Positions 4,410 to 31,598 of a stretch of DNA of 64,000 nt are shown piece after piece (the stretch's first letter is position 1; the number at the start of each line of letters is the position of its first letter). Below the pieces are notes generated by a model, which saw only the letters and a list, made by a program, of their open reading frames with translations, searched no databases and was not told where the DNA came from. A program made the translations under genes and the position numbers. Source of the DNA: an uncultured delta proteobacterium (GTDB lineage: Bacteria > Desulfobacterota > BSN033 > UBA1163); assembly GCA_963827685.1 (NCBI GenBank), contig CAWHBU010000004.1, positions 544,001-608,000 on the forward strand, given 5' to 3'.

Positions 4410-4429
4410 GTGGCCTCCTCCGTTCGATA

Positions 4430-4462
4430 GGACATTTGTCATAATTATAATGACATATGTCG
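4430..4462. promoter_or_regulatory. putative autoregulatory operator of RES-Xre
   Basis: two palindromes GACATTTGTC / GACATATGTC just upstream of the antitoxin. Confidence 0.5.
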
Positions 4463-8251: not shown

Positions 8252-9972
8252 CCTTCCAACACGATATCATCATTGTGGGAGCTGGCTTGGCAGGACTTCG
8301 GGCAGCGGTCGAGTGTGTGGGCCAGGCCGATGTGGCGATCGTGAGCAAGGTTTTCCCTACGCGATCCCATTCCGGAGCGGCCCAGGGAGGGATCACTGCC
8401 CCTCTCGGCAATGAGGAGGAGGATCATTGGGAATGGTATTTCTATGACACCGTCAAGGGAGGCGACTACTTGGGAGATCAGGATGCCATCGAGATCCTGG
8501 TCAAGGATTCGCCGCGGGCCATCTATGAATTGGAGCACATGGGAGTGCCGTTCAGCCGTACCGCCGAGGGGAAGATCGCCCAACGGAACTTCGGCGGTCA
8601 TACGCGTGACTATGGTAAGAAACCCGTCAAGAGGGCCTGCTATGCTGCAGACCATACCGGAAGAGTCGTCCTCGACACGCTTTTTGATCAGTGCCTACGG
8701 CATCAGGCCAAATTCTATTCGGAACACTACCTTCTTTCCCTGATCATGGACAAAAGGAGATGTGTGGGGGTAGTGACCTATGATCTCGCCACGGGAGAAC
8801 TTCAGCTCCTTCAGGCCAAAGCCGTTCTCTTGGCCACTGGGGGGTGCGGAAAAATTTACAGGACGACCTCCAATGGCAATGCGACCACCGGAGAGGCCTT
8901 CACCTTGGTCTACCATTTGGGAATTCCTCTCGAAGACATGGAGTTTGTCCAGTTTCATCCCACAGGCCTTTATCCTTTAGGCATCCTGGTGAGCGAAGCG
9001 GCAAGAGGCGAGGGCGGGCTCTTGCGAAACCAGTTGGGCGAGCGTTTTATGGAGCGATACGCACCCACCGTAAAGGATCTGGCGGCAAGAGATGTCGTCT
9101 CCAGAGCCATTCTCACGGAGATTCGTGAGGGGAGGGGGATTGGCGGAAAGGATTATGTCCACCTCGACCTCACTCATCTTGGAGAGCAAAAGATTCAGGA
9201 GAAACTCTGGGAAATTGCCTCCTTTGTCAGAATCTACACAGGAATCGATCCGGTCTACGATCCCGTTCCGGTGGCACCCACCTGCCATTATATGATGGGA
9301 GGCATTCCTACAGACGTCGATGGCAGGGTGTTGGCCGATGAGACGGGTTCGATCGTGCCGGGATTGTATGCAGCAGGAGAATGCGCGTGTGTATCGGTTC
9401 ACGGCGCGACCCGGCTCGGCTGCAATTCTCTCCTCGATCTCCTCGTCTTTGGCCGGAGAAGCGGGTTGGCGATGAAGGAAAGAATTAAAAAGGCTGATGT
9501 TCCATCCGTGTCGATGGATGCTCTGAAGCCATCGGAAGAGAAGATCGCCCGACTATTGACTCATCCAGGTCAAGAAAAAATCGATCCACTCAGGAAAAGG
9601 ATGCGGTCTGTGATGATGGAATATGGTTCGGTCTTTCGAGATGAGGATGGTTTGAAAAAGGGGATGGACGAAATCCAAAATCTGAAAGAACGTTACAAAG
9701 AGATTGGGATCGTGAACAAAGGGAAGGTCTTCAATTATGAATTGATGGAGGCGATCGAACTGGGCCATCAGCTTGAGCTCTCGGAGGTCATCCTTTATAG
9801 CGCCCTCGGTCGAAAGGAGAGCCGGGGAGCTCACTACCGGGAGGATTTCCCATCGCGGGCAGATCGATACTTTCTGAAGCATACCTTTGCTTTTCACACC
9901 CCGAAAGGGCCGGAGGTGAGGTATAAACCGGTGAAGATCACCCGATTTCAACCTGAAGCAAGGGTCTATTAA
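8248..9972 (+). CDS. sdhA: succinate dehydrogenase/fumarate reductase flavoprotein
   Basis: GAGLAG, RSHSGAAQGG, QFHPTG, SEAARGEGG, HYMMGG, ESRGAHYREDFP. Confidence 0.95.
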   Translation: MTFQHDIIIVGAGLAGLRAAVECVGQADVAIVSKVFPTRSHSGAAQGGITAPLGNEEEDHWEWYFYDTVKGGDYLGDQDAIEILVKDSPRAIYELEHMGVPFSRTAEGKIAQRNFGGHTRDYGKKPVKRACYAADHTGRVVLDTLFDQCLRHQAKFYSEHYLLSLIMDKRRCVGVVTYDLATGELQLLQAKAVLLATGGCGKIYRTTSNGNATTGEAFTLVYHLGIPLEDMEFVQFHPTGLYPLGILVSEAARGEGGLLRNQLGERFMERYAPTVKDLAARDVVSRAILTEIREGRGIGGKDYVHLDLTHLGEQKIQEKLWEIASFVRIYTGIDPVYDPVPVAPTCHYMMGGIPTDVDGRVLADETGSIVPGLYAAGECACVSVHGATRLGCNSLLDLLVFGRRSGLAMKERIKKADVPSVSMDALKPSEEKIARLLTHPGQEKIDPLRKRMRSVMMEYGSVFRDEDGLKKGMDEIQNLKERYKEIGIVNKGKVFNYELMEAIELGHQLELSEVILYSALGRKESRGAHYREDFPSRADRYFLKHTFAFHTPKGPEVRYKPVKITRFQPEARVY

Positions 9973-11763: not shown

Positions 11764-11972
11764 CCGAAATCCCGATTTAGGATGCGGTCTTTGCGAGCGA
11801 AGCGAAGCAATCTCGCTTTTCGCGATGAGATTGCCACGCCTGCGTGCCGGAACGTTTGGCTGCACATATCTGCTTCATAAAGACAAGCACTTCGGCGTGC
11901 AGGCACGCACCTTTCAGGTGCTCGCAATGACGGATTGAGAAGGGGCTTCCCTTTTCTAAATCGGAATTTGGG
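11764..11972. mobile_element. three-level nested palindromic repeat (MITE-like shell, REP-like hairpin, CCTGC element)
   Basis: outer IR ccgaaatcccgatttag/ctaaatcggaatttggg; middle gtctttgcgagcgaagcgaagcaatctc...gctcgcaatgac; inner cctgcgtgccgg...ttcggcgtgcagg flanked by cacg on both sides. Confidence 0.6.
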
Positions 11973-12081
11973 TCCCTCTTCCTGGATGGTTTTTCCTCTA
12001 ATATCTTTTGTTCTTCTCAGGAATCAAAAATTATTTTGAAATTAAGGGCGTTATGTAAGATAATGGGTCGAGGTTTCAATC

Positions 12082-14625
12082 ATGTCCGGTACTCCAAAGA
12101 TGAAAGACGCTTATATAGCCATTCACGGTCATTTCTATCAGCCTCCACGGGAGAACCCCTGGCTCGAAATCATTGAGACCGAGGAGAGTGCCCATCCCTT
12201 TCATGACTGGAACGAACGGATCGCTCTGGAGTGCTATCGGCCCAATGCTCACGCTCGGATCCTTGATAGCAAAGGGAAGATTTTAGAAATCATCAACAAT
12301 TACTCCTCCATCAGTTTCAATTTTGGTCCCACGCTCCTCCCCTGGCTGGAGAAATATTTTCCTTCGGTCTATCAGAAGATCCTTGAGGCAGACCGGGAAG
12401 GTTTGAGGCGATTTGGCCATGGGAATGCCATCGCGCAAGTTTATAACCACATCATCATGCCTTTGGCCAATGACAGGGATAAAGAAACAGAAGTCCTCTG
12501 GGGAATGGCCGATTTTGAAAAACGGTTTCATCGTAAACCCGAGGCCCTCTGGCTTCCTGAGACGGCTGTTAACTACGCCACCCTTCAGGTATTGGTCAAA
12601 CATGGAATGCGCTATCTCATCCTGAGCCCCTTCCAGGCGTTGAGGGTAAGGCCCTTTGGGGGCAAAAAATGGACGGATGTCTCTCAAGGCCGGATTGATA
12701 CGACGCGACCTTACCGATGTTTTATCAAAGATGCCTCCGGAAAAAAACTCTCAGACCAGTTCATCGACATCTTTTTTTACAATGGGATCATCTCAAAGGA
12801 AGTTGCCTTTGGGGATCTTTTAAAAGATGGTACTATCTTCGGTAATCGATTTGCACAGTTCTATCAGGAGTCGAAAGAGAGACCTCAGTTGATTCACATC
12901 GCCACAGATGGCGAGACCTATGGGCACCACAAGAAATTCGGAGAGATGGCCTTGGCCTTTGCATTGGGCAATGGGTTTCTAACAAAGGGATTTGAAGTTA
13001 TCAATTATGGAGCTTTTCTGAAGCGTTTTCCTTCTGTTCATGAAGTGGAGATTGATGAAGGACCAAAAGGAGAGGGAACCTCCTGGAGTTGTGCCCACGG
13101 GGTGGGGAGATGGAAAGAGGATTGTGGGTGCAGCACCGGAGGGAAACCTGGATGGAATCAAAAATGGAGAAAACCTCTGCGGGAGGCTCTCGATCTTTTA
13201 CGGGATGAACTCAACCAGGTTTTTGAGAGAGAGGGAGGAAAGATCTTTCAGGATGTATGGAAAGCGAGAAATGGGTATATTGAAGTGATCCTTAATCGGT
13301 CTCCTGAAGGGATCAAAAACTTCTTCAATCAATATGGGGCAAAAAGCCTTGATGAAGAAGGCAGGATCAAAGGACTCAAGCTCCTTGAGATGCAGAGGCA
13401 TGCCTTGCAGATGTATACGAGCTGCGGCTGCTTCTTTGCCGACCTGGCAGGACTCGAGACGATTCTTGTCTTTGAGCATGCAGCCAGGGCCATCCAGTTG
13501 GCAGAAGAATGGGCAGGAGGAGAGATTGAGAAAAAATTCCTTCAACATTTATCTGAAGCCAAGAGTAATCTTCCTGGAATGGGGAAGGGCGATGAAGTTT
13601 ACCAGCGCCTGGTGAGGCCGAAATGGGTCACACCTGAAAGGGTGGTGAACCACTTTGCCATCACTTCTTTATTCGATGGCGGGGATGGGGAGAAGAAAAT
13701 CTTCTCCTATCGGGTGGAGAAGATTCGTTATGAAAAGATGGAAAAGGAAGAGAATCTGTTGGTCATGGGGCAGGTGCGGGTCACCTCCGAAATCATCCTC
13801 GAATCAAAGGAATTTCTCTTTGGATTGATTTCATCTAAGAAAGAGGTTTTTCGAACCTGGGTGTCGGAGAAGAAGGAAAAACTCGATTTCAATACCTTTA
13901 AGGAAAAAGGACAAGAGAGATTTGGGAAAGGTCAAGAAGAGATGGCTAAGGTTCTTACTTCACTCCTCGGGAATCGGGTCTTCACGATTCAAGATACGTT
14001 TGAGGAGGAGAGACAGGCCATCTTCCAGAAACTCATCCAGAAGGAATTTAATGAACACTGCCAGATTTATGCTGACCTTTTTGACAGGACGAAGCAGGCA
14101 GTCGAGGCATTGTCCAGAGGGGGGTTGGAGATTCCGTTCGAGATTCGTGTGGCGGCTGAGGTGACACTCAGCGATCGTTTGTTTCAAGAAATAAAGGAGC
14201 TGAAAAGGGATTTTAAAGGGACGATCGAAAGAAGGAAGATTGATGAGATTGTTGGAGAGGCAAAGGAGCACGGCTATCATCTGAGAAGGGAGAAATCTCT
14301 TTTTGCTTTGAATGAGATATTAATGGAAAGGATGAATGCCCTTCAGAAAAGCAAGGGTTCGGAACTTTCCCGTCAGTCAGAACAGGCTGAGGAGGTCATG
14401 GCACTCCTCGAGTTAGCAAAGAAGTGGGAATTCGAAATCTCCCTGGAGGAAGCTCAGAATTTAATGGGCGAAATATTGGAGGAATGTGTCGGGGATCTTG
14501 AGAAGTGCTGGTGGGAGAACGGGACTCCGAAACTATTCTCTCCGAATTTAATTACCCTGGCAGAGAAATTGGGGTTTAATGTGGAGAGATATTCGAAAAT
14601 AACTGGGCTGAGTAAAGAAGATTAA
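12082..14625 (+). CDS. glycoside hydrolase family 57 / DUF3536 protein
   Basis: IHGHFYQPPRENPW, HDWNERI..ECY, WLPETA, ATDGETYGHH, SWSCAHGVGRW. Confidence 0.9.
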   Translation: MSGTPKMKDAYIAIHGHFYQPPRENPWLEIIETEESAHPFHDWNERIALECYRPNAHARILDSKGKILEIINNYSSISFNFGPTLLPWLEKYFPSVYQKILEADREGLRRFGHGNAIAQVYNHIIMPLANDRDKETEVLWGMADFEKRFHRKPEALWLPETAVNYATLQVLVKHGMRYLILSPFQALRVRPFGGKKWTDVSQGRIDTTRPYRCFIKDASGKKLSDQFIDIFFYNGIISKEVAFGDLLKDGTIFGNRFAQFYQESKERPQLIHIATDGETYGHHKKFGEMALAFALGNGFLTKGFEVINYGAFLKRFPSVHEVEIDEGPKGEGTSWSCAHGVGRWKEDCGCSTGGKPGWNQKWRKPLREALDLLRDELNQVFEREGGKIFQDVWKARNGYIEVILNRSPEGIKNFFNQYGAKSLDEEGRIKGLKLLEMQRHALQMYTSCGCFFADLAGLETILVFEHAARAIQLAEEWAGGEIEKKFLQHLSEAKSNLPGMGKGDEVYQRLVRPKWVTPERVVNHFAITSLFDGGDGEKKIFSYRVEKIRYEKMEKEENLLVMGQVRVTSEIILESKEFLFGLISSKKEVFRTWVSEKKEKLDFNTFKEKGQERFGKGQEEMAKVLTSLLGNRVFTIQDTFEEERQAIFQKLIQKEFNEHCQIYADLFDRTKQAVEALSRGGLEIPFEIRVAAEVTLSDRLFQEIKELKRDFKGTIERRKIDEIVGEAKEHGYHLRREKSLFALNEILMERMNALQKSKGSELSRQSEQAEEVMALLELAKKWEFEISLEEAQNLMGEILEECVGDLEKCWWENGTPKLFSPNLITLAEKLGFNVERYSKITGLSKED

Positions 14626-14673
14626 GGGTCAGGTTTTGTATTAAGACAATTGCTTGATTGCAGGACCTGACCC
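14626..14673. repeat. 48-bp REP-like palindrome GGGTCAGG...CCTGACCC (copy 1)
   Basis: near-identical copy at 16756-16803; same ends at 15502-15633. Confidence 0.75.
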
Positions 14674-14724
14674 TCCTCCGATTTGGAATAGGTTGGACCC
14701 ATGAACCACTTTATCCTCTTCGCC

Positions 14725-14764
14725 TTGACGGCGTACTCTGTTTTGAGTACAATTGTACTCAAAA
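14725..14764 (+). promoter_or_regulatory. sigma70 promoter with overlapping operator for MNT-HEPN
   Basis: TTGACG-17-TACAAT; perfect 24-bp palindrome ttttgagtacaattgtactcaaaa at 14741-14764. Confidence 0.7.
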
Positions 14765-14777
14765 AGGAGTCCAATAG

Positions 14778-15353
14778 ATGTTAGAAAGTCTATACATTTC
14801 GAAATCAAAAATCAGACAGGATTTGCTCGCTCTTTTTTTTACCAATCCGTCTCAAAAATATTATTTGAGAGAACCGCAACGTGAATTAGGTTACTCAGCT
14901 GGTAGCATACGACGGGAGCTCTTAAAATTTCAAAAAGATAATTTATTTGATACCCAATCGGTCGGAAACCTAGTTTATTATGCCTTGAATACCAAGCATC
15001 CCTTATATAAAGAACTGAAAAGGATTGTTTCCAAAACGGTAGGAGTGGAAGGTAGTTTGAGGAAGACGCTTTCGTCTGTTCATGGAATAAGGTTTGCTTT
15101 CATATACGGTTCTTATGCGAAGAGGAAGGAAAAGGATAGCAGCGACATAGACCTTATGATCATTGGGAATCCCGATACCTCTCGCTTGAATGAAAAGATT
15201 GCTGAGTTAGAAAAAAGGCTTAAAAGAGAGATCAATCCAACCATCTATTCCTTGGAAGAATATCGGAGCAAGAAGAAGACCAAAAGTGGTTTCATCATGG
15301 AGTTATTAAAGAGTCCAAAGATATTGGTAATAGGTAAAGAAGATGATTTATAA
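14778..15353 (+). CDS. wHTH-fused minimal nucleotidyltransferase (MNT antitoxin)
   Basis: N-terminal wHTH; AFIYGSYA...SDIDLMIIG; REINP. Confidence 0.88.
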   Translation: MLESLYISKSKIRQDLLALFFTNPSQKYYLREPQRELGYSAGSIRRELLKFQKDNLFDTQSVGNLVYYALNTKHPLYKELKRIVSKTVGVEGSLRKTLSSVHGIRFAFIYGSYAKRKEKDSSDIDLMIIGNPDTSRLNEKIAELEKRLKREINPTIYSLEEYRSKKKTKSGFIMELLKSPKILVIGKEDDL

Positions 15354-15603
15354 AGAGTCGAAGGGAAATCTTTTGAAGCAAGGGTTAATGAAAAAATGTC
15401 CTGTGGATTGGAGAGCTATAAACAATCTTATGAAGCGGGCTTATACAGATTTGAGAACTGCCAAAAGAAACATCGATGATGATGAAGAATGTGCGGTTGT
15501 CGGGGTCCGGTCTTGCAATAGCACATTGAAGAAAATTGCGGAACATCTGGGTTTCCATTATGCTACTATAAGCCGGGGAATAAAGCGGGTGGAGGGGGGA
15601 TAA
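15343..15603 (+). pseudogene. HEPN toxin truncated by a REP-bounded insertion
   Basis: overlaps the MNT stop; HEPN-like N-terminus (..RAYTDLRTAKRNIDDDEECA) breaks at about 15495 and continues into unrelated HTH-like sequence. Confidence 0.65.
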
Positions 15604-15633
15604 AGTCAAATGTATGATTGCAAGACCTGACCC
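15502..15633. mobile_element. REP-bounded element carrying an HTH-like coding remnant
   Basis: ggggtccggtcttgcaat ... attgcaagacctgaccc ends; interior reads TLKKIAEHLGFHYATISRGIKR. Confidence 0.6.
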
Positions 15634-15843
15634 TTCTCGATTTTTCTAATCACGCTTTCTGTAAACGCATTGACACAAAATGTAATACATGAAGAATGGC
15701 CCCCTTAACCCGCAGTTCAATTTGTCCCGTGTCAAGGGCTGACCCCTATTTTGGACCTAAGGTCTGCTTGTTTCCCTCAAATTTTCCTAAACGAAACGAA
15801 ACCTGAAAAATGATATTTATTGCATCCGGTGTATTTTACTTAC

Positions 15844-16178: not shown

Positions 16179-16406
16179 TCACTGAGCGTCATGAATTGGT
16201 TTGATTATGTTATCCACGTCTGGAGACCCTCCATCATAATAGTATGTGATCACCAATGCAACCTGGCCTTGAAAGGGTACTGAGCCAGCTGGCAATGCAG
16301 CGATTGCGGAGGCACGCACGTTTTGTTTCCAAGATTGGAGCCGCTGTTTGTTTCTCGTTTGTACAGAAACAGGGGGCCCTTTTATTGTAAATTCTAATGG
16401 TAACAT
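16179..16406 (-). pseudogene. RusA-like endonuclease, C-terminally truncated
   Basis: LEFTIKGPPVS..., PDVDNIIKPIHDA motif then a stop at 75 aa. Confidence 0.65.
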
Positions 16407-16589
16407 TTATACTTTCGAGACCTTTCTATTTTCACCCAACGTAATAGATACTGTGTTGGGACCTTGAATTATGAACCAAGCTTATTGAAGGTTTCGGGTA
16501 ATTTCGTCTCGGAAGCATCTTCTCGTTGAACCTAGTAGATATCTTCTTTGGTGCTTTGAAAGTTATGAGTGTAAGCTGGTTTTGATTTG

Positions 16590-16631
16590 CAAATCTTATC
16601 AAAATCAGACAAAAATACAACCAAAATTTTT
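16590..16631 (-). repeat. ~45-bp promoter-like repeat, copy A
   Basis: caaatcttatcaaaatcagacaaaaatacaaccaaaattttt. Confidence 0.8.
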
Positions 16632-16745
16632 ACGGTTTTCCACCGGATGAGCGCCTGATCAACACCAAAATGCCTACAATAATAAGAATCAGTGGCCACC
16701 ACTGAGCCATGAGCGAGCGAATAGGCGGTAGCCAGCCAAGATTGA
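16630..16745 (-). pseudogene. 5'-truncated duplicate of the small DUF5668-like membrane protein gene
   Basis: encodes NLGWLPPIRSLMAQWWPLILIIVGILVLIRRSSGGKP*; 5' half missing where the REP at 16756 sits. Confidence 0.7.
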
Positions 16746-16755
16746 GTCAAATTGA

Positions 16756-16803
16756 GGGTCAGGTCTTGCATTAACACAAATACTTGATTGCAAGACCTGA
16801 CCC
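16756..16803. repeat. 48-bp REP-like palindrome (copy 2)
   Basis: gggtcaggtcttgcattaacacaaatacttgattgcaagacctgaccc. Confidence 0.75.
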
Positions 16804-16824
16804 TCCTTCCTCCCGAGAAGCAAT

Positions 16825-17004
16825 CTACGGCTTTCCACCAGATGAGCGCCTGATCAACACCAAAATGCCAACAATGATAAGAATAATTGGCCACCACTGA
16901 GCCATGAGTGAGCGAATAGGCGGTAGCCAGCCAAGATTAGACAGGAGGAAAATGATACCCAACCCAATCAGGATGTACGCTCCGATTGCGGACTTAGATC
17001 TCAT
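16825..17004 (-). CDS. 59-aa two-TM membrane protein (LiaI/LiaF-like, DUF5668-type)
   Basis: not in ORF track; MRSKSAIGAYILIGLGIIFLLSNLGWLPPIRSLMAQWWPIILIIVGILVLIRRSSGGKP with GGAGGAG RBS. Confidence 0.8.
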   Translation of the reverse strand: MRSKSAIGAYILIGLGIIFLLSNLGWLPPIRSLMAQWWPIILIIVGILVLIRRSSGGKP

Positions 17005-17040
17005 AACGGCTCCTCCGTATGATGAATTTCATCCGCCTAC

Positions 17041-17325
17041 GCAGGAGACCACGGCCTTTGCCGTGGAGGAATGCGTTCATGCGCGACATACCATTTTGAC
17101 GATCAATGTATCATGCTTCGGCGGATTTCGCTCACCGGCGGATGACCCGCCGAAGCCTTGGCGCTTGTGCGCCCTGCCTCCGCCGGAGCGGCTCCCGCCT
17201 ACGCGAAGCCCGCGCTTCGGCGGGCGTAGGTAGGTCGCGCAGGCAGGCGAAGCGCTACAGCGCCTAGGTGCGTAGGTGGGTATGGTTTTTGGGGACCACG
17301 GGCTTGCCCGTGGGGCTCCATGCAA
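17041..17325. mobile_element. GC-rich non-autonomous element with IS200/IS605-like end hairpins and nested mini-elements
   Basis: hairpins ccacggcctttgccgtgg and ccacgggcttgcccgtgg near the ends; nested CCTGCC/CCCGCC elements at 17173-17247. Confidence 0.55.
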
Positions 17326-17340
17326 GACACTTCCGCTCAC

Positions 17341-17386
17341 CAAATCTTATCAAAATGGGATAAAAATACAACCAAAATTTTTGGGG
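17341..17386 (-). repeat. ~45-bp promoter-like repeat, copy B
   Basis: caaatcttatcaaaatgggataaaaatacaaccaaaatttttgggg. Confidence 0.8.
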
Positions 17387-17683
17387 GATTAAGGGGCAGA
17401 AGCATATGGCTGCAGCAATGCACTTTGATGTGAAAGACTTTCCTTTCTTAAGGAAGGCAAAGGTTTTGGACTGATTCGGCCTTGCCAATTCAATAAATCA
17501 TCCAGTTTAGCAAAAAAATAGTGCTTGACATTTAGGCCGCGTTTATGCGTCATATAGTTAATCCGGTTATCCGGAGGTGGATGGCGTAGCCATCGGGCCC
17601 GCAAGGGCCTTTTTTATTGCCCTCAAAGAAATTTTTTTCCAAAACATCGAGGTCCTTCCTGATCGTATTTTGTTTGCAGAATC

Positions 17684-17794
17684 TTAATCACCCCCAACCC
17701 AAATGGAGATATTTTCCCTGAGAATATGGTTTGGATTTTCTGAGCTTTCAAGGTCCGGGTTTCCCACTTCATCAATATAAATCCGATATTTCAT
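17684..17794 (-). pseudogene. DUF3800-like N-terminal fragment
   Basis: MKYRIYIDEVGNPDL resembles the Y-x-D-E-x-G start of DUF3800 proteins; ends after about 36 aa. Confidence 0.55.
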
Positions 17795-17863
17795 TCCGTA
17801 CTTGTTAATCTTCCCAATATCTTCAGTATTTTGAAGGTTATGAATGTTAGCCGGTTCGCTCAC

Positions 17864-17909
17864 CAAATCTTATCAAAATGAGATAAAATTACAACCAGAA
17901 TTTTTGGGG
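17864..17909 (-). repeat. ~45-bp promoter-like repeat, copy C
   Basis: caaatcttatcaaaatgagataaaattacaaccagaatttttgggg. Confidence 0.8.
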
Positions 17910-18079
17910 GATAGAAAGGTAGAACGATTGCCCTGTCGAAAGAAAAAAATTACGTCGGCACTAAATGCTGACGCTACATTATTCATGGAACTTATTACAC
18001 CGGGAAAGAATAGGGAGTCACGTTTTCAAAGGATATTGAAGAACCAATCTAAGAAGTGAAGCTCGCGCGCCCATCGGAC

Positions 18080-18349
18080 TCAGGCATCTTGCCTAAGCCT
18101 TTTTTCCTTATTCAAATGTTCCTTGATCCACATCCTGAGAAGCGACGTATAGCTCAGGCCCTTGTGTTCAGCAATCTTTTCTACCGATTTGATATCGTCT
18201 GGATCAAGCCTCACTGCGACAGTCCTCTTAGCTCTTCTGACGAATTTTATCCCGGCTTCTTTCGTTTCTCTGTAATAGTCCTGGAAATTATGGCTTTCCC
18301 AGAATCTTGCAGCTTCTCCATCGGTCTTAAATTTTGGTATCTTTTTCAT
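18080..18349 (-). CDS. brnA: BrnA/CopG-like antitoxin
   Basis: KKIPKFKT..EAARFWESH, VAVRL...A..KGLSYTSLLRMWI. Confidence 0.85.
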   Translation of the reverse strand: MKKIPKFKTDGEAARFWESHNFQDYYRETKEAGIKFVRRAKRTVAVRLDPDDIKSVEKIAEHKGLSYTSLLRMWIKEHLNKEKRLRQDA

Positions 18350-18351
18350 AA

Positions 18352-18633
18352 TTATTTGCCTCTTGTTTTAAAATAGGTCTTCTCCCACTCGCTCATGTCT
18401 CTTGCAGTAATAACCCTGACTTCCCCTTGCCTTATAAATCTGACTACCACAAAAAGAAATCTCCCGGAGTAGGTTTTCCCGAAAACATAATGTAGATTTT
18501 CTCTCCCCGATCTGATAAATGGAATCTCCTCCTCGTTGAAACATACTTCATCCACTTCCTCTGGCCTGACCGCGTGTCTTGCCACATGCTCTATGCTTTC
18601 ATCCGTCCATTTAATAGAGCTTATCGTCCTCAT
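18352..18633 (-). CDS. brnT: BrnT family toxin
   Basis: W...EHVARHAV.PEEV.EV, GKTYSGRFLFVV, RVITARDM. Confidence 0.85.
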   Translation of the reverse strand: MRTISSIKWTDESIEHVARHAVRPEEVDEVCFNEEEIPFIRSGRENLHYVFGKTYSGRFLFVVVRFIRQGEVRVITARDMSEWEKTYFKTRGK

Positions 18634-18796
18634 CTAAATTCCCATAAGCATCCGTGCCATTCCCGGCAATCATCTTAATGATAAACAAACGTATTGCATT
18701 TGTCAATAATAAGCCTTGTTCAGAGACCTGTTATCGATTGCATAATGTCATCGATTGTGCTATCGTATTACGAAATACGCATCGATGGAGGTACTC

Positions 18797-19003
18797 ATGA
18801 AGTCGGTAACCATTTCTCCGAAATATCAGGTAGTCATCCCGCGCGAGGTGAGGGAGTCCATGGAAATTAAACCCGGTTCAAAGGTCCAGGTCCTTTTGTA
18901 TGAGAACCGTATTGAATTGATTCCTATCAAAAACCTGAGGCGGATGCGGGGTTTCTTGAAGGGCATCGATACAACCGTGGAACGTGAAAGAGACAGGGTA
19001 TGA
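18797..19003 (+). CDS. vapB: AbrB/MazE-type antitoxin
   Basis: VTISPKYQVVIPREVRE; GGAGG RBS; overlaps the PIN gene. Confidence 0.88.
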   Translation: MKSVTISPKYQVVIPREVRESMEIKPGSKVQVLLYENRIELIPIKNLRRMRGFLKGIDTTVERERDRV

Positions 19004-19389
19004 ACCTCGTCGATTCGTGTGGATGGCTCGAATATTTCGCGGACGCTCCTCATGCCGATTTCTACGCCCCTGCAATCGAGGATGTTGAGAACCTCATTGT
19101 GCCGACCATCTGCATTTTAGAAGTTTTTAAACGGACCCTCCAGCAGCGCAACGAGGACGCCGCACTTCAAGCCATTGCTTTGATGCACCAGGGATTGATC
19201 GTCGATTTGACCTCAAGCATTGCCCTCGATGCCGCAAAGATCGGGGCCCAGCTCAAACTGCCACTTGCCGACAGTGTCATACTGGCCACTGCCCGCACCC
19301 ATGCCGCCGTCATCTGGACTCAGGACGAGGACTTCAGGGGTATCAAAGGCGTCAGGTATATCGAAAAAAGGACAAAGGGCCTCAGGTAA
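19000..19389 (+). CDS. vapC: PIN-domain VapC toxin
   Basis: VDSCGWLEYF, LPLADSVILATA, WTQDEDF. Confidence 0.9.
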   Translation: MNLVDSCGWLEYFADAPHADFYAPAIEDVENLIVPTICILEVFKRTLQQRNEDAALQAIALMHQGLIVDLTSSIALDAAKIGAQLKLPLADSVILATARTHAAVIWTQDEDFRGIKGVRYIEKRTKGLR

Positions 19390-19529
19390 CCAGGAAATCG
19401 GATAGGGGAATCAGGGACAATTCTCATCTTTACCGACGAAACCACAAGAACTGGGGGCGTGCAAGGAAAGGAGGGGGATAGTTCGACAACCATGATCTTG
19501 TAGTGTATTCTAATGAAAGGAGGTAAGGT

Positions 19530-19748
19530 ATGCGTTCAGTCCTTTCTGTGAGTTTACCCAAAAACATATCGTCCGAACTCGATAAATTCGCAAGGAGCAC
19601 AGGCCGAACCAAAAGCGACATTGTCAAGGAATTGATCAATCTCTACCTCTGGGAGGCACGATTCCGCAGGTTGCAGAAGCGGGTGGGGACGAAGGCCAAG
19701 AAGGCCGACATGGTCAGCGAAGAGGATGTATTCAAGGCCATATCGTGA
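19530..19748 (+). CDS. CopG/RHH antitoxin (orphan)
   Basis: SVSLP...ELD..A..TGRTKSDIVKE; AGGAGG RBS; the overlapping GTG AAA GCC GTT start downstream does not continue as a recognisable toxin. Confidence 0.8.
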   Translation: MRSVLSVSLPKNISSELDKFARSTGRTKSDIVKELINLYLWEARFRRLQKRVGTKAKKADMVSEEDVFKAIS

Positions 19749-19861
19749 AAGCCGTTGCAATATTTCTTGTGACCTATTGGGTCAAAGCACAGAAAGACAT
19801 CTTCCCGGAGGATGCCGGGTGAAAACGGCTCATTAGATCCCTTTTCTAATTCCTGAATATA

Positions 19862-20002
19862 TTCTGGATATTTCCCAATTCTATCCAGAGTATTCAACAC
19901 TTCGGTAAGAAAGGCGTCGCCGAGTCCGGGGATCTCATAATTGTAATACTCAATGGCATCATCCAGTTCAATCTGCGCGATCTCGAAGAACCGAATCCTC
20001 AT
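19862..20002 (-). pseudogene. RelE/ParE toxin, truncated
   Basis: MRIRFFEIAQIELDDAIEYY...GLGDAFLTEV...RIGKYPE; family-like sequence is lost after about 47 codons. Confidence 0.7.
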
Positions 20003-20010
20003 CCGTGATC

Positions 20011-20223
20011 CTACTTGTACCTTTCAAGAACTCTTTCCAATGTAACAGCCTTAATCGCCCCGCGTTCGTACGCGTCGATTCGGTTCTCCGCCTCCTTCGC
20101 CCAGAGACCCTCAAGCTCTGCATCCGGCTTATCCAGACTGGAGAGCAGCTTGTCGATTAGCTCCGCTTTTTCTGTAGGTTTCAGGGTTAACGCCTGTTTC
20201 AGAAATTTGTTTGTCGTAGCCAT
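20011..20223 (-). CDS. addiction module antitoxin component
   Basis: AL.L.P.EKAELIDKLLSSLD..D..LE..WAKEAE.RIDAYERG. Confidence 0.85.
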   Translation of the reverse strand: MATTNKFLKQALTLKPTEKAELIDKLLSSLDKPDAELEGLWAKEAENRIDAYERGAIKAVTLERVLERYK

Positions 20224-20407
20224 GTTGCCTCCTTCTACTCATTTAAGTTTACGCTCATTCTCTGTAATCATCAAGTTTTAAGACATCGTGTCAGGTATTG
20301 AAGTGTGAATCAAGCTCGTAGATGATTTCGAGTAATGTTATCTCAGAGACCATCTTCTCGTTCAACCTCACGGACATCTTGCTCAGTATTGTATAAAGTT
20401 ATGAATG

Positions 20408-20447
20408 CCCCGTTAGAAATAATGCCGCGCTGCAATTTCTAACGGGG
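20408..20447. repeat. CCCCGTTAGA...TCTAACGGGG mini-palindrome
   Basis: 13-bp IR; related element at 43163-43223. Confidence 0.6.
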
Positions 20448-20452
20448 TAAAC

Positions 20453-20498
20453 CAAATCTTATCAAAATGAGATAAAAATACAACCAGAATTTTTGGGG
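20453..20498 (-). repeat. ~45-bp promoter-like repeat, copy D
   Basis: caaatcttatcaaaatgagataaaaatacaaccagaatttttgggg. Confidence 0.8.
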
Positions 20499-20884
20499 AA
20501 TTAGAAGAACAGGGGAAATAGAGGTTCACTCCCCGATCCGTCTTCAATTGGGGGAAAACAGCATCCGTAAACCAGCTGGCAAGATAAATGGTATTCCAAC
20601 CATGGAAATTCGGTGTCAGGCATCGGTAATAAGGTATTTGCTTCCTTTAGGGTTTCAAAGATTCCAGAAAATCAATAAATTCTTGAAGAGGTGCAACCTT
20701 CACCCCATTTTCTAAGGGATAGGACTCCTTAACGGGCGCTATGATCCATGCTTCTTTAATTCTTACTTTGCATATTGGAAGTACAATATCCAATTTACAA
20801 AGATGCAAGTGTTACATTTATGAAGACGGGGGCATGAAGAGCGGGATGTTGGTTTTAAAACAACCTGGCAATTGAGAGGGAAGT

Positions 20885-22351
20885 TCAGAAACCGTTCTTT
20901 CTGCGCACCCGTCCGTATTGAACAAGGGCATACATTGCGCGAGCACACTGTTCTGGTGTGTCGTAAATCGGTATCCCGCCTTCTCTGAGGATGTCTTCCA
21001 TGATATCATGTTCCAGGCGGATAAATCGAAGACAAATAATGGGTTTGTTATATTTCTTCGGCAGCGATGCATAGACCTTTGCCCCCTCAAGGGCAACTTG
21101 AATAGGTTCGGGAAGTGAATCGGAATTCCTATCAATTTTCAGAGAACGATCCCAGATTTGCGGACTGACCGGCACGTTACTGATGACGCCGTCAATATAA
21201 TCAAGCTTGAGCAGCTTTTCTATTATTTCCGCCTCCTGAAGTGCTGTGCGTGAGCTTCCGGCAAAATCGATTGGATTTTTTGCCGGGGGTGCGTGTGCCG
21301 GAAGCAATGCGGTGATACTGGAGGCCGTGTCTGCGTCCAATTCCGGCAGCTCGAGGCCAAGAGAGGAGCAAGCATCTGTTCCGACAACCCCCTGCCCTCC
21401 GCTCCCGAGTATGGCTACCCGGTTACCGTCAGCCAAAGGTAACCCAACAAGTGCCTCGGCCATTTCAAAGAGATGAAAGGACTCATCAACCTGCAGCAAT
21501 CCAATCTGCTTGCACACACCGTCAAAGATCTTCTCAGATCCTGCAATCGACGCGGTGTGTGACAGGGTGGCCCGCGCACCAGCGGCAGAACGGCCACCCT
21601 TATAGACGACAATGGGTTTTTTCTTTATCACCTGGCGGGCGACCGTGAAAAAACGCCTGCCGTCTTTCAGTCCCTCGAGATAGAGCACAATAACCTTCGT
21701 ATCCTCATCGTCTGCAAGGTATTCGAGATAGTCAGATACCTCAAGATCAGCCTGGTTTCCGATACTGATGAATTTGCTCAGGCCGTATCCCTTACTACTG
21801 GCGACCTGTGCCATAGCAACGCCAAAGGTGCCGCTCTGTGAAATAAATGCAATAGGTCCCGCTTTGGGCGCCTGGGGAAAGCATAAACTGAGTTGTCCCG
21901 CGGCGCTCCATATCCCCATGCCATTAGGTCCCACCAGCCTGATACCGCCTGAACGGGCCACCTCCACCATTGCATGCTCAAATCCTCTCCCCTCTTCACC
22001 GACTTCGGCAAAACCGGCGCTTATCACAACGGCCCCCTTGATGCCTTTCTCGATACACTCAGACAAGAGGCCCGGAATGGTTGCCGCCGGCGTAGTCATA
22101 ACGGCAAGATCAATAACGCCCGGCACCGCGGACACGCTGGGGTAGGTAGGAAGTCCCAATATTTCGCCTTTTCCGGGGTTGATGGGGTAAATGGCCCCCT
22201 TGAACCCTGTCTTCAGAGGCCTCTCAACCATCAGGTACCCCCACTTTCTTGAGGTATCCGATGCTCCTATAACGGCTATTGATCTTGGTTTGAAAATGTA
22301 ATCGAGCTCTTCCGCTATCTTCTTTTTCAAGTACGACTCCTCGTTGCGCAA
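20885..22351 (-). CDS. acyl-CoA synthetase (NDP-forming), alpha/CoA-binding subunit
   Basis: F.PRSIAVIGAS, GPNGMG, FISQSG, SIGNQAD, SHTASIAGS, NPID. Confidence 0.9.
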   Translation of the reverse strand: MRNEESYLKKKIAEELDYIFKPRSIAVIGASDTSRKWGYLMVERPLKTGFKGAIYPINPGKGEILGLPTYPSVSAVPGVIDLAVMTTPAATIPGLLSECIEKGIKGAVVISAGFAEVGEEGRGFEHAMVEVARSGGIRLVGPNGMGIWSAAGQLSLCFPQAPKAGPIAFISQSGTFGVAMAQVASSKGYGLSKFISIGNQADLEVSDYLEYLADDEDTKVIVLYLEGLKDGRRFFTVARQVIKKKPIVVYKGGRSAAGARATLSHTASIAGSEKIFDGVCKQIGLLQVDESFHLFEMAEALVGLPLADGNRVAILGSGGQGVVGTDACSSLGLELPELDADTASSITALLPAHAPPAKNPIDFAGSSRTALQEAEIIEKLLKLDYIDGVISNVPVSPQIWDRSLKIDRNSDSLPEPIQVALEGAKVYASLPKKYNKPIICLRFIRLEHDIMEDILREGGIPIYDTPEQCARAMYALVQYGRVRRKNGF

Positions 22352-22712
22352 GGGGAAAAACCTACAAAAAAATCACTTCTTCAGGAACCCAATCGATTTA
22401 TTGTAACAGATATTGAATTTGGGGACTACCATCCCTCTCCCCCCTGCCTACCGGCAGGCAGGCAAGGGGAGAGGGGAGGGTGAGGAGACTTGAGCATTTA
22501 TCACGAAATTGGAGATGCTTCTTGGAAGGAGAAAATTTGTCGGAAATAGGGGATCTCCAAAAAATCATAAATTGAAAAACAACAGATAGAAGCGGCCCGT
22601 TTATTTCCAGGCGACGGGACCACAAAAACTGGGGGCGGGCAAGGAAACAAAAGTCTTGACATCTTAAAAATCTTTGGTTAAGTATTCGGCAAAACAAGAA
22701 AGGAGGCCTGTT

Positions 22713-22922: not shown

Positions 22923-23142
22923 AAAAAATACGTCGGCAATTCCTGCCTGCCGGCAGGCAGGAATGCGGACGCTACATCACTTCTGGTGCATACTGATACC
23001 TTGAACGAAACACAGGATCAGCCGGAATTTTTTTGATTGGATGATCTAAATTCGCGGCGGTATGCTCCAGCGATTTGAATACCATCTCCACCTCTTCCGG
23101 CGCACCGTCTTCGGGTTCCCACTCCCCTTTTCGGACTTCGGC

Positions 23143-27332: not shown

Positions 27333-27504
27333 ACGGCCACGAAAGGCTGCTGAGGCCGTAAATCACGCGGCGAATGCCGGAAAAAAAACAGACGGAGAAA
27401 TTTCGGTTGTGAGGGCATACTATTTGTAATGATTAAAGGACAAGATAGGGGGTAGAGGATTAGAGACAGGCAATCCTGTCCAACAAATGCACAAGGAGGT
27501 GTCT

Positions 27505-29124
27505 ATGCGACTTGAAAAAGAATTAATATTCACCGCTATCGCAGTCCTGGTCACTTTCTCGTTTGGGAGCAGCATGGGATTTAGCGCTTCCTGCAAGAAA
27601 TGTGAAGACCTTTTAACCACTGATTTTGGCCCAGGAGTGAAGATCATTTCAGCCAGAATAAGGAGCGAAGTAGACCCTCCCGGAGGCAAGGGGAATCCCA
27701 TCCCGGTACCCGAGTACTGTGAGGTTAGAGGGAAGGAATTGCCGGAGAATAATTTTGTTATCAAACTGCCCACGGAATGGAAAGGGAATTATTTCCAGAG
27801 AGGAAATGGCGGATTGGCCGGCTCCATTCAGGAGGACAATATAAACTACGGTTTGAAGCTCGGCTACGCGGCAGCAGGGGCGAATGGAGGCCATGATGGA
27901 GCCATAGTAGATGCCAGATTCGGCTATAACCCACCGGATAACTCCAACCCGAGTGCGAACGAAAAATTAGATGATTATTGTTTTGGATCGATCCACAAAA
28001 TGAACGTTCTGGCGAAGAAGATCATTAAGGCCTATTATTGCAAAGGGCCTAAATATTCTTATTATCAAGGGTGCTCCACAGGCGGGCGTCAGGGCTTGAT
28101 TGAAGCCCAACGGTATCCGGAGGATTTCGATGGGCTGATGATAGGCGCGCCCTTGGTTTATCTTACAAAGATAACCATGCGTGATATATGGCAAGCAAAG
28201 AAAATTGCGGAAGGTGAAGGGCTGACGAGTGAAAAGATGAGTATGGTTGCTGATGCGGTTATGAAAAAATGCGACAAGACCGATGGTCTGGTGGATGGTC
28301 TTATCGATGATCCCCGAAAGTGCGCCTTTGATGCCCTTAGGGAGTTGCCCGCCTGTCAGGGGGACAAGGACAATCCCAAGTGTTTTACCCTTGCTCAGAG
28401 GACTGCCATTAGCAAGATTTACGATGGCCCAAGGAACTCTGCAGGAGATCTGCTCTTCAAGGGAGCGCCTTTGGGGTCAGAGGCCATAGGGCCGGGACCT
28501 TTTGGCCCCAACAGTGGCTGGCATGGTTGGATTATTCCTTTGCCTAAAGCACCTATGAGCATAGGCGCCATGATGGGATCAAATTTTGTACGATATTGTG
28601 TTTCACCCCCTAAGGGAGGAGGACCCAATTGGGATCTTAAGACCTTTGACTGGGACACCGATTGGCCGAATGTGTTGGCAAAGATGTCATCCAAATGCGA
28701 TGCCTATGAGCCGAATCTGTTGCCCCTTAAGCTTCGCGGCGGAAAGATCATTCACTATCACGGGTTCGCAGACCCCCTGGTTTCACCATTCGCGTCAATT
28801 GAATACTACAAGTCTGTGGTTGACTATATCGGCGATAGAGCAACAAAGGAATTCTACAAGCTCTATATGATTCCCGGCCTCTTCCATTGCAGCGGAGGAG
28901 TCGGTTGCACCGACGACGATGCGATCTTTAATGCGCTGGTCAGCTGGGTTGAAAAAGGGGTTGAGCCAAAATCCATTACTGGATCGCGTATCGTTGATGG
29001 TAAGGTCGTCAGGACCCGTCCCATGTGTCCCTATCCGAGTGTCGCCAGATACAATGGCAAGGGCAGTATCGACGATGCCGCTCATTTCACCTGTGTGAAT
29101 CCTTCCGGCCAAGGTCCGAATTGA
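27505..29124 (+). CDS. secreted tannase/feruloyl esterase family hydrolase (copy 1)
   Basis: signal-peptide-like N-terminus; GNGG, GCSTGGRQG, YPEDFDG, HGFADP, GLFHC, RPMCPYP; AAGGAGG RBS before ATG 27505 (ORF track 27487). Confidence 0.9.
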   Translation: MRLEKELIFTAIAVLVTFSFGSSMGFSASCKKCEDLLTTDFGPGVKIISARIRSEVDPPGGKGNPIPVPEYCEVRGKELPENNFVIKLPTEWKGNYFQRGNGGLAGSIQEDNINYGLKLGYAAAGANGGHDGAIVDARFGYNPPDNSNPSANEKLDDYCFGSIHKMNVLAKKIIKAYYCKGPKYSYYQGCSTGGRQGLIEAQRYPEDFDGLMIGAPLVYLTKITMRDIWQAKKIAEGEGLTSEKMSMVADAVMKKCDKTDGLVDGLIDDPRKCAFDALRELPACQGDKDNPKCFTLAQRTAISKIYDGPRNSAGDLLFKGAPLGSEAIGPGPFGPNSGWHGWIIPLPKAPMSIGAMMGSNFVRYCVSPPKGGGPNWDLKTFDWDTDWPNVLAKMSSKCDAYEPNLLPLKLRGGKIIHYHGFADPLVSPFASIEYYKSVVDYIGDRATKEFYKLYMIPGLFHCSGGVGCTDDDAIFNALVSWVEKGVEPKSITGSRIVDGKVVRTRPMCPYPSVARYNGKGSIDDAAHFTCVNPSGQGPN

Positions 29125-29220
29125 GAGCTGTAAACGTTGAAGCTTGATGAGGGGAGCGATACGGTAAGGGTTGTGAAATAGGAAAAAAGGCACAGGCAAA
29201 GCCGACAAGTCCATTCTTGA

Positions 29221-29250
29221 GAAGGCAGGACCAGAAATGCCCTGCCTTTC
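29221..29250 (+). terminator. probable terminator hairpin
   Basis: aaggcagg...cctgccttt; duplicated at about 31638-31670. Confidence 0.45.
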
Positions 29251-29672
29251 CTGCTGAGCTTCGTTGGATGTGCCATTTTGCTATTCCTGTTCCCGGATAT
29301 AGCCCTTTATCTCCCCAGACTGTTCATCGGTGGATAGACCAGGCGGGGAACATTTTGTCTTTGGGTGTGTTTCAGTGTAACGTAGAATACAAGCATAAGA
29401 TATAGACAGTGACGTAACCGCGGACTTATATTGGAAGTTTCCTTCAGGTCGCAGGGCGGAGAGGGAGTGCCACGCTATTGGTAAGATATGGAATCCTTCG
29501 AGACCCGAACCGTCTTGCAGCATAAGGTCTCAAGAAGGGGGGTGGTTTACTATTACTAAAGGAGAAATTTCGTTTGTGAAGGTGTTGTATTGGTAATGGT
29601 TAACAGATAAGACAGGGGGTAGAGGATTAGAGACAGGCAATCCTGTCCAACAAATGCACAAGGAGGTGTAAA

Positions 29673-31598
29673 ATGTATCTACGAAAGCAATGGATTATTT
29701 TTTCCGCAGTACTGGTCGCACTGTTTTTCGGTGCAAGGTTGGGGTTCTGTAATATCTCCGATAAATGTTCAGACACAACCAATATTGATTTTGGCGCAGG
29801 AGTACAGATCACCTCGGCCGCGATAGTTCCTGCCGCTCCCCCGCTACCCGAGCACTGCCTGATACAAGGGAGGTTGTTGCCGGAAGCGGATCCTTTCATG
29901 ATTAAACTCCCGACGGACTGGAACGGAAACTATTACCAGGTCGGAAATGGCGGTTTGGCCGGTACCATAGACGAGCCTAATGTAAACTTCGGTCTGGGGC
30001 GAGGGTACGCGGCAGCGTCAGCGAGTGGAGGCTACGATGTGAGCGACCCCATCAATGCAGATGCGAAATTTTGCTATAACCCGTCGGGCAACTCTAACCC
30101 TTATGCAAAAGAAAAGCTGGATGGCTATTGTTTCGCATCGGTCCACAAAATGAATGTTCTGGCAAAGCGCATCATTAAGATCTATTATGGCAAGCGGGCT
30201 TATTACTCTTATTATAAAGGCTGCTCCACAGGCGGGCGTCAGGGTATGATCGAGGCACAGCGCTATCCGACGGATTTCGATGGGATCTTGGCAGGTGCCC
30301 CTTTGGTCTATCTCACCAAGGTAACCATGCGTGACGTGTGGCAGGCGCAGCAGGTGCTGGGACTGCCGACGCTCGCTACTGGTGCGGCGGATATGATGGC
30401 CAAAGTCTCTGCAGCGGTTTATAACAAATGCGACGGCATAGACGGCTTGGTGGATGGCATGATCGACGATGCCCGTAAGTGCACCTTTAATGCCCTGAGC
30501 GAGCTGCCTGCCTGTCTGGGGGATATCCCTGACCCTCAATTTAACTGCTTTACGACTGCTCAGAGGACAGCCATCCAAAAGATCTACGACGGGCCCCGGA
30601 ATTCTGTCGGCGAGCTGCTGTTCAAGGGGACGCCTGTAGGGGGAGAGGCCATAGAACCGACCTTGATAGGCCCCAATACCGGCTGGTGGTGGATCCTTCC
30701 TTTTGCCCCTGGCACGCTCAGCATCGGAGGCGGTATGGGATCAGAGTTTACGCAGTATTGCGGTTTGACTCCTGCCGGAGGGGGCCCCGGCTGGGATTAT
30801 AGGACCTTTAACTGGGACAGTGATTGGCCCTACGACATGACAAAACTGTCAGCCCGATGCGACGCCAATAACCCTGATCTTCGGCCGTTCTATAGTCACG
30901 GCGGCAAGTTGATCCAATATCACGGGTGGGGAGACCAATTGGTTTCGCCCTTTGCCATGGCCGAATATTATGACGCGGTTCTTGCTACTATGGGCAAAAC
31001 GACAACCGACAGGTTCTACAAGTTATACATGATCCCCGGCCTAAGCCACTGCTCCTTAGGGCTCGGTTGTTCTAACGACGCCGGGATGTTTGATGCGCTT
31101 GTCAACTGGGTGGAAACGAGGGTCGAGCCCGACGTGATCATTGGCTCACGGGACGCATACCCTCCGACGGGTATGTCGGCGAGGACCCGGCCTCTGTGCC
31201 CCTATCCCGGAGTTGCCAGGTATCTTGGCGCTGGCAGCATCGACGACGCGGCCAATTTTACCTGTGTGAAGACAATCAAGGCGCATGTTCGTATTGAACC
31301 GGAAACCCTAAAGCTTGGCAGCGGTGGAACGTTCACAGCCTTCGTTACGCTCCTGTACCAGGGCGACTGGCGCGTCACCTCAGCGGTCTGCGAAGGCGCT
31401 CCTGCATTGAAATTAACCAAGCATGGTTACAGCTATAGCGCTACGTTCAACAAGCAGGATCTCAAAAACATCACCGCGGGGGATGCGGTGACGTTCACGG
31501 TGACCCTATTTGCTGAGCAGCGAGGTTACCACTGTGGACATAGCGACGAGGACGAGATTGCGTTTGAGGGGAGCGATACGGTAAGGGTTGTGAAATAG
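29673..31598 (+). CDS. secreted tannase/feruloyl esterase family hydrolase (copy 2) with extra C-terminal beta-rich domain
   Basis: GCSTGGRQG, HGWGDQ, GLSHC, RPLCPYP; about 110-aa extension VRIEPETLKL...FEGSDTVRVVK. Confidence 0.9.
   Translation: MYLRKQWIIFSAVLVALFFGARLGFCNISDKCSDTTNIDFGAGVQITSAAIVPAAPPLPEHCLIQGRLLPEADPFMIKLPTDWNGNYYQVGNGGLAGTIDEPNVNFGLGRGYAAASASGGYDVSDPINADAKFCYNPSGNSNPYAKEKLDGYCFASVHKMNVLAKRIIKIYYGKRAYYSYYKGCSTGGRQGMIEAQRYPTDFDGILAGAPLVYLTKVTMRDVWQAQQVLGLPTLATGAADMMAKVSAAVYNKCDGIDGLVDGMIDDARKCTFNALSELPACLGDIPDPQFNCFTTAQRTAIQKIYDGPRNSVGELLFKGTPVGGEAIEPTLIGPNTGWWWILPFAPGTLSIGGGMGSEFTQYCGLTPAGGGPGWDYRTFNWDSDWPYDMTKLSARCDANNPDLRPFYSHGGKLIQYHGWGDQLVSPFAMAEYYDAVLATMGKTTTDRFYKLYMIPGLSHCSLGLGCSNDAGMFDALVNWVETRVEPDVIIGSRDAYPPTGMSARTRPLCPYPGVARYLGAGSIDDAANFTCVKTIKAHVRIEPETLKLGSGGTFTAFVTLLYQGDWRVTSAVCEGAPALKLTKHGYSYSATFNKQDLKNITAGDAVTFTVTLFAEQRGYHCGHSDEDEIAFEGSDTVRVVK

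Follow-up and report, generated by a model that had tools for sequence, protein, structure and literature searches.

A duplicated promoter-like module with transposase-derived tails at a hypervariable gene slot in uncultured Thermodesulfobacteriota

The 64-kb stretch of an uncultured delta proteobacterium analyzed here (contig CAWHBU010000004.1, positions 544,001 to 608,000; hereafter the window) carries four copies of a 42-bp repeat in a stretch of small or fragmentary genes that is bounded by a GH57/DUF3536 gene on one side and a pgi remnant on the other. The rest of the window encodes housekeeping functions and fatty-acid or CoA metabolism. The 42-mer is the best-conserved part of an intergenic module of about 250–350 bp, found at the same slot in five related metagenome-assembled genomes (MAGs) of sulfate-reducer-like bacteria, and the genes that follow it differ between genomes. 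DNA fetched around the matches in these five MAGs is referred to as L001 to L005. The locus is best read as a hot spot of recombination and is neither an integron nor a cluster of attC sites lacking an integron integrase (CALIN). On balance, we favor the view that a promoter module has been duplicated within a hypervariable slot that is reshuffled by homologous and illegitimate recombination, with remnants of TIRYT transposase elements serving as anchors.

The four copies of the core (A to D; Table 1) lie in one orientation and are 39–42/42 identical to copy B. No further site with at least 26/42 identity to the 42-mer is present on either strand of the 64 kb, and a position weight matrix (PWM) scan of the window recovered the same four copies and nothing else. 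Four points placed uniformly over the 64 kb would share a 3.9-kb interval with a probability of about 9e-4. A previous reading made without database searches (the sequence-only reading) had located the four copies correctly, as well as their minus-strand promoter-like sequence: a -35-like box, TTGTA(T/A), 16 nt, and an extended -10-like box, TAAGAT, with TG just before it. The CATAAC leader that it assigned to copies A, C, and D is indeed common to them, and the extension that it noticed in A and D aligns at 73% over about 110 nt further.

One exact 24-position pattern was scanned over 185,579 species genomes and gave five matches in five MAGs, the titles of which read Syntrophaceae, delta proteobacterium or Thermodesulfobacteriota. 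All five fall in the slot downstream of pgi. The fetched DNA contains nine copies, four of them missed by the pattern, which brings the total to 13 with those of the window; a truncated look-alike in L005 (PWM score 11.7, against 34–68) was excluded from all counts. In L001, L002, L003, and L005 the copies are found downstream of pgi, oriented as that gene is, and in the window the pgi side of the slot is marked by a 3′ remnant of the gene only. The other side is bounded by tctC or GH57 in L001–L003, as it is in the window. L004 is a 2.1-kb contig that was placed by a ligase 3′ end and a HigBA pair. The content of the slot is different in each genome, and the cargo variation that the sequence-only reading had proposed to check is seen among these relatives. 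Neither a genome-wide scatter of copies as ends of an insertion sequence (IS) or of a MITE (a miniature transposable element with inverted repeats), nor an invariant cargo order, the sequence-level outcomes that the sequence-only reading had named as refuting it, was seen in the sequence data, and blastn searches with the module returned nothing from plasmids or phages. The module is a real, lineage-limited feature of a Thermodesulfobacteriota clade. That the mosaic arose during metagenome assembly is very improbable: the region is rich in repeats and gene fragments, as an artefact would be, but the window copies differ from each other by 1–4 nt and have distinct flanks, the window sequence contains no N, and five independent MAGs show the same module in the same slot.

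Conservation within the core is concentrated in the promoter boxes. In seven intact copies that had not been chosen by the search pattern, mismatches amounted to 1/105 in the boxes vs 20/189 elsewhere in the core (p 0.0015) and, counted by variable columns, to 1/15 vs 11/27 (p 0.03); the three copies from relatives within this set gave 0/45 and 15/81, respectively. The degenerate core that precedes the ligase gene in L005, the -10 box of which is lost, was left out of the test. Mean identity is 89% in the core vs 79% in the tail described below (the core is higher in 14 of 15 pairs), and four-fold sites of the flanking housekeeping genes are 44–81% identical, below the value of the core. A weak dyad with a 7-bp spacer extends across the promoter spacer; copies A and L002 break it, and neither has a compensatory change. 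Box conservation and the broken dyad favor a promoter over a recombinase site, and the 42-mer is best regarded as a probable sigma70-type promoter, kept by selection and presumably active as such. A structured-RNA or attC role was dropped, as the core does not fold (z 0.6–1.0 for copies C and D, -1.6 for A).

The sequence-only reading had proposed a combined promoter and recombination module. Its first half agrees with the selected, promoter-like character of the core and its confinement to one slot in five relatives; the 42-mer as a recombination site is not supported. We consider it improbable that the 42-mer is where a trans-acting recombinase of the tyrosine or serine type would act on a cassette array. 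High conservation, the single orientation, the weak dyad with its spacer and the sharp left edge of the core would all suit such a site, but the dyad is disrupted in two copies, conservation tracks the promoter boxes, the sequence shared past the core varies in length, and the segments between copies, with several genes in both orientations, are not units of one gene plus one site. No recombinase, integrase or transposase was detected in 78/78 window open reading frames (ORFs) of at least 130 aa, nor in 69/92 locus ORFs of at least 125 aa, the other 23 being orthologues of scanned genes. The recombinase that the sequence-only reading suggested looking for is not among them; the same reading had itself seen neither an integrase nor an attC hairpin. 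Our own rule-based scan, which is not the IntegronFinder covariance model, found no attC between 14.6 and 23.2 kb of the window; it gave one doubtful match in the five loci and three in a control of 20.8 kb of housekeeping sequence. A candidate attC that follows the tail in L003 folded no better than shuffled sequences. A pdif/Xer module was also discarded: compared by eye with the 6-bp XerC/XerD layout of what we take to be the dif consensus, the core dyad is reversed in polarity, and its centre is 7 bp long.

The module consists, in order, of an upstream segment present in some copies (U1), the core, a palindromic hairpin located at the predicted transcript start (z -5 to -8), and a tail of about 120 nt. 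The hairpin is recognizable in 10 of the 13 copies, in one of them degenerate, and absent from A, B, and C. The tail corresponds to the last ~38 codons, frameshifted, and the terminal inverted repeat (TIR) of a TIRYT/RayT (Y1 HUH) transposase gene. A first homolog search with a tail profile returned just two single-member ORFs, and a likeness of the tail to the 5′ end of an acetate-CoA ligase gene was dropped once the RayT match appeared. A profile of the tail translation matched 26 proteins among 1.84 billion representatives, mainly short ORFs. One of them (P0018) carries Bac_DnaA_C, and its 56 long relatives are mostly Y1_Tnp plus Bac_DnaA_C proteins of ~322 aa, many of them named RayT. A profile built from the last 45 residues of 49 of these ~322-aa proteins has its best window match in the tail of copy D (E 5.6e-7) and also matches three locus tails (E 0.001–0.02) and two free remnants; reversed decoys gave no match. 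Frameshifting in the A and L003 tails precludes a profile score, and these two were assigned by DNA alignment. A decayed right TIR is present in 6/13 copies, 10–14/16 identical to that of a free remnant and reading GGTG, not GGGG, at its end; its decay is comparable to that of the rest of the tail, and it lacks promoter-like conservation. The RayT C-terminal match and the terminal TIR identify the tail as a TIRYT element's right end, now dead, an origin of the A/D extension that the sequence-only reading had missed. Among TIRYTs for which DNA context could be obtained, none was close, the best being 41–42% identical.

Module copies might be non-autonomous, internally deleted TIRYT elements of MITE type, hopping locally with the transposase's own promoter as core. 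We hold this to be doubtful. The sharp left and fixed right edges are consistent with it, as are what is probably a deleted TIRYT, two-ended and from another family, at 15500–15633 of the window and the recurrence of the hairpin-plus-tail wording in at least 4/26 of the tail-profile matches, short ORFs from other records. A MITE has TIRs at both ends, however, and no left TIR lies upstream of the core in any copy. No target duplication was noticed by eye, no part of RayT matches the core, and every copy found is at one slot.

The points at which copies cease to resemble each other bear on how genes reached the module. In all six tail-complete copies homology is strong up to the TIR end, 137–211 bp downstream of the core, and is lacking beyond it (15 pairs), two pairs reaching uncorrected shuffle p values of 0.01 and 0.035 there through ~10-nt matches. 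The other 7 of the 13 copies break at the hairpin end, within the tail or just past the core. There is no single crossover point within the 42-mer, and the several downstream breakpoints differ from the fixed crossover of integron cassettes. TIRs also stand at other joins. One is that of a 113-nt duplicate of the 3′ end of the DUF5668-type gene; it is the gene fragment whose stop codon, as the sequence-only reading had seen, is overlapped by the first bases of copy A. Another is the gene break at 15500, where the ~135-bp element interrupts the gene after a nucleotidyltransferase (region 15343–15633). In L002, an AAA_14/DUF4143 ATPase gene (14194–15690) lies between direct repeats of ~115 nt that end at a TIRYT TIR, with a GH57 3′ remnant (13939–14136) adjoining the unit. 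TIR dimers occur nearby; further doublets with strong hairpins occur at 14625–14675 in the window and at 8206–8268 in L003.

Such joins could be the work of a TIRYT capture platform, in which an HUH transposase encoded elsewhere would nick single-stranded DNA (ssDNA) at the TIR and join foreign DNA behind a fixed promoter, or move the module one-endedly; a Y1 nuclease would thereby serve a function like that of an integron. The loss of homology at the TIR end in 6/6 tail-complete copies and the TIRs at the three other joins just described argue for it. According to the parts of the literature consulted, E. coli TnpA-REP cleaves and recombines BIMEs (interspersed mosaic elements of bacteria) in vitro (PMC3333891), and the RAYT type concerned here may be among the more IS-like ones (Group 1 of PMC5581495, our group assignment being tentative). 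The module TIRs are decayed, however, unlike the promoter; no intact RayT was found in the window or the five loci; 7/13 copies break away from the TIR; and the portions consulted of the papers on subclass 2.1 nucleases give no biochemistry for them (PMC3733652, PMC6006769). We regard such a platform as possible but not likely. A promoter-plus-TIR platform at a fixed slot, loaded in trans by a TIRYT (Y1 HUH) via ssDNA or circular intermediates, appears doubtful.

The 13 copies are followed by eight gene types and, in L003, by one flank without a recognized gene. A LiaI-LiaF-like membrane gene follows 4/13 copies and thrC 2/13; an aldo-keto reductase, the CoA ligase, TcmP, the RusA-like gene, DUF3800 and an antitoxin pair occur once each. 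The toxin or defence character that the sequence-only reading gave to the cargo is too narrow: toxin-antitoxin (TA) genes are included, but thrC, the reductase and the CoA ligase are as well, and 4/13 cargoes are metabolic. Its identifications of the window cargoes were right in part. The RusA-like gene has a Pfam match, but only 75 codons of it remain (matching residues 6–82 of a 147-aa relative), the 3′ half being missing. DUF3800 is what it was said to be, but is internally deleted, with residues 1–23 and 221–256 of 256 left, out of frame. The DUF5668-like gene is an intact LiaI-LiaF-like transmembrane (TM) gene that we take to belong to DUF5668. In the antitoxin/ParE pair the TIGR02574 antitoxin is intact, but its partner is cut after ~47 codons; the ParE label comes from gene pairing and a weak lead from Atlas, namely a single cluster of which 14% is ParE (score 0.90), and the partner has no match in Pfam, NCBIfam or plasmid tblastn. 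Three of the four window cargoes are thus broken, and with PIN the broken genes of the window slot are the RusA-like, DUF3800, ParE-like, and PIN genes. An integron-like array, as first suggested, does not agree with these pseudogenes, with housekeeping-type cargo or with the lack of gene-plus-one-site units.

Two further observations touch on exchange at the slot. The two pgi fragments of the window (Table 1) abut exactly (nt 1469/1470), in swapped order and 5.7 kb apart, and the 5′ part of pgi is absent from the window. The simplest reading is that a 5.7-kb circle with copies C and D would have been reopened in pgi and inserted beside A and B; neither a core nor a TIR marks the ends of this putative circle. 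Two deletions might also account for the arrangement by chance, if with low probability. In addition, the MazE-PIN pairs of the window and L005 agree at 42/45 four-fold sites, against 169/225 for the adjacent ligase (p 0.005), an excess that fits what would be expected of lateral exchange at the same slot.

According to the reading that we favor, the module (promoter, hairpin and dead TIRYT right end) would have been duplicated several times between pgi and tctABC/GH57, in a slot that would be neutral, with genes being gained and lost at the slot without a dedicated recombinase. Repeated modules and the scattered TIRYT right ends, which are common at the locus as free copies, would provide portable homology for RecA-type crossovers, so that the sequence after another TIR end would come to lie behind the promoter. 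Cargo would also be added and pruned, through illegitimate deletions and at least one apparent circular intermediate. Several points weigh against this reading. The core matches only 7/12 sigma70 consensus positions and, as a consequence, is not listed by a promoter scan with a threshold of 9/12. Copies share descent, and the Fisher tests on the boxes hence overstate their independence. The left edge of the core is sharp (ungapped homology extends 0–14 nt beyond), which selection explains and a defined element end would explain too. Dispersal is judged from 5/5 exact matches at one slot and none elsewhere in the 64 kb, and this confinement rests on a pattern that caught 5/9 local copies, in incomplete MAGs. 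Segments common with free TIRYT ends can be ~30 nt, which is short for RecA, and breaks at the TIR end are equally predicted by homology with free TIRYT ends and by transposase action. Gene orders, finally, are mostly collinear: gain, loss and duplication are evident, order reshuffling is not.

In the literature searched, judged mostly from search results rather than full texts, no account of the module was found. In the parts consulted of the sources, the closest parallels are as follows. Minimal mobile elements (MMEs) and neisserial intergenic mosaic element (NIME) arrays of Neisseria, mosaic repeats proposed to promote exchange of neighboring genes (PMC1797815), likewise show alternative genes at a syntenic slot and mosaic repeats varying in number. 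NIME arrays are genome-wide and described as Neisseria-specific (PMC1797815), whereas here a promoter and transposase debris are carried, at one slot only and in an unrelated phylum. TIRYTs of subclass 2.1.2 are reported to lack repetitive extragenic palindromes (REPs) and to have as borders TIRs that carry the motif GGGGWSAS (PMC6006769, PMC3733652). Like TIRtrons, the tail encodes a Y1_Tnp plus Bac_DnaA_C C-terminus and ends in a near-GGGGWSAS TIR that overlaps the 3′ end of the gene, with TIR dimers in the vicinity; unlike them, it is a right end only, with no gene and no left TIR, fused behind a conserved promoter and hairpin, and the portions consulted report no cargo turnover at TIRs (PMC3733652, PMC6006769). 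BIMEs and REPtrons share with the module the palindrome-linker mosaic, locus-level copy variation and a link to a Y1 nuclease (PMC3333891), but have GTAG-footed REP pairs as units, which are lacking here, where a promoter is carried and whole genes are bracketed. Integrons and CALINs resemble the locus in their variable arrays of small accessory and TA genes with a promoter ahead (see also PMC3948777); they differ from it in that here there is no integrase or attC, the promoter is repeated per unit, orientations are mixed, joins are imprecise and part of the cargo is metabolic.

Table 1. Features of the slot and its borders (window positions)
Feature	Position	Strand	Remark
GH57/DUF3536 gene, conserved far boundary of slot	12082..14625	+	
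Probable internally deleted second-family TIRYT, both TIRs	15500..15633	+	weak helix-turn-helix remnant, E 5.6
RusA-like gene, 3′ half missing	16179..16406	-	RusA Pfam match
Linker and decayed TIRYT 3′ end with TIR, following copy A without hairpin	16453..16589	-	
Core copy A	16590..16631	-	A-tract, -35-like, extended -10-like
113-nt duplicate of DUF5668-type gene 3′ end, fused to core A	16631..16743	-	
TIR doublet, hairpin z -8.4, at join of 113-nt duplication	16754..16804	.	
LiaI-LiaF-like TM gene (DUF5668-type), intact	16825..17004	-	
Core copy B, then palindromic-repeat cluster, without hairpin or tail	17341..17382	-	
pgi fragment, end at pgi nt 1469 (L001 numbering)	17406..17473	-	
DUF3800 gene, ~600-nt internal deletion	17623..17794	-	
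Tail 5′ stub after copy C	17820..17856	-	
Core copy C	17864..17905	-	
Remains of pgi end with the palindrome downstream of it, located upstream of copy C	17946..18001	-	
BrnT toxin / CopG-type antitoxin pair	18080..18633	-	
AbrB/MazE-PIN TA pair, 95.5% identical to L005 pair	18755..19389	+	
Ribbon-helix-helix (RHH) antitoxin	19530..19756	+	PIN partner lost after few codons (intact in L001)
TIGR02574 antitoxin (20011-20223, intact) and truncated probable RelE/ParE partner	19862..20223	-	
TIRYT/RayT 3′ remnant and TIR after copy D	20288..20407	-	E 5.6e-7
Palindromic hairpin at predicted transcript start, copy D	20408..20447	.	z -6.1
Core copy D	20453..20494	-	
U1 segment, not core-adjacent here; precedes core in L001, L004	20843..20883	-	
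CoA-binding acetate-CoA ligase family gene	20885..22351	-	degenerate core before it in L005
pgi 3′ end from pgi nt 1470, continuing the 17406-17473 fragment in gene order	22927..23107	-	

Some further features of the slot are worth recording. A GC-rich hairpin stretch lies directly after the DUF3800 stop codon (17540–17625); RNA motifs are known beside DUF3800 genes, and Rfam, with no match, does not confirm one here. No Rfam family reached the gathering level in the window, none appeared in 16.4–20.6 kb at E up to 1, and no tRNA or tmRNA was found in the window. None of the four cargoes in the window is matched by a PADLOC model; PADLOC matches the nucleotidyltransferase (PDC-M05A), whose partner, the gene cut by the 15500 element, is presumably a HEPN gene. 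A 53-aa ORF at 20647–20808 has no family match and is unlike the L002 ATPase. An intergenic segment of ~80 nt is shared by window positions 19440–19520 and 22571–22651 and by L001 9891–9970; its window copies lie upstream of the RHH gene and of a small gene at 22674. Among the relatives, L003 has the 3′ end of pgi a second time, behind a flavodoxin-like gene (9071–9250), L005 a group II intron 3′ end (RF00029, 47–122) just downstream of a core and membrane-gene unit, and L002, within the slot, a Type II methyltransferase and a neighbor, possibly an endonuclease, convergent on thrC (11793–13318). Elsewhere in the window, a RES-Xre TA pair (3517–4442) stands between fumarase and aconitase, outside the slot. 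Tandem tannase/feruloyl esterase paralogues occupy 27394–31670, and 54 nt from the 3′ end of the second recur exactly after the first (29148–29201 = 31565–31618), which points to an internal deletion. A periplasmic binding protein paralogue (54860–55870) lacks the N-terminal part present in that at 53548–54831.

The role of TIRYT and subclass 2.1 nucleases is left open in the parts consulted of the papers that describe them (PMC6006769, PMC3733652). The locus would offer a natural substrate with a sharp prediction, namely that joins fall at the TIR end. If a capture platform were to prove true, it would be an analogue of the integron that uses no tyrosine recombinase, and subclass 2.1 TnpA-Y1 proteins would gain a first role. 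If the reading that we favor is true, the slot would be a modest example, in uncultured Thermodesulfobacteriota, of transposase debris and a duplicated promoter making a hot spot of gene turnover.

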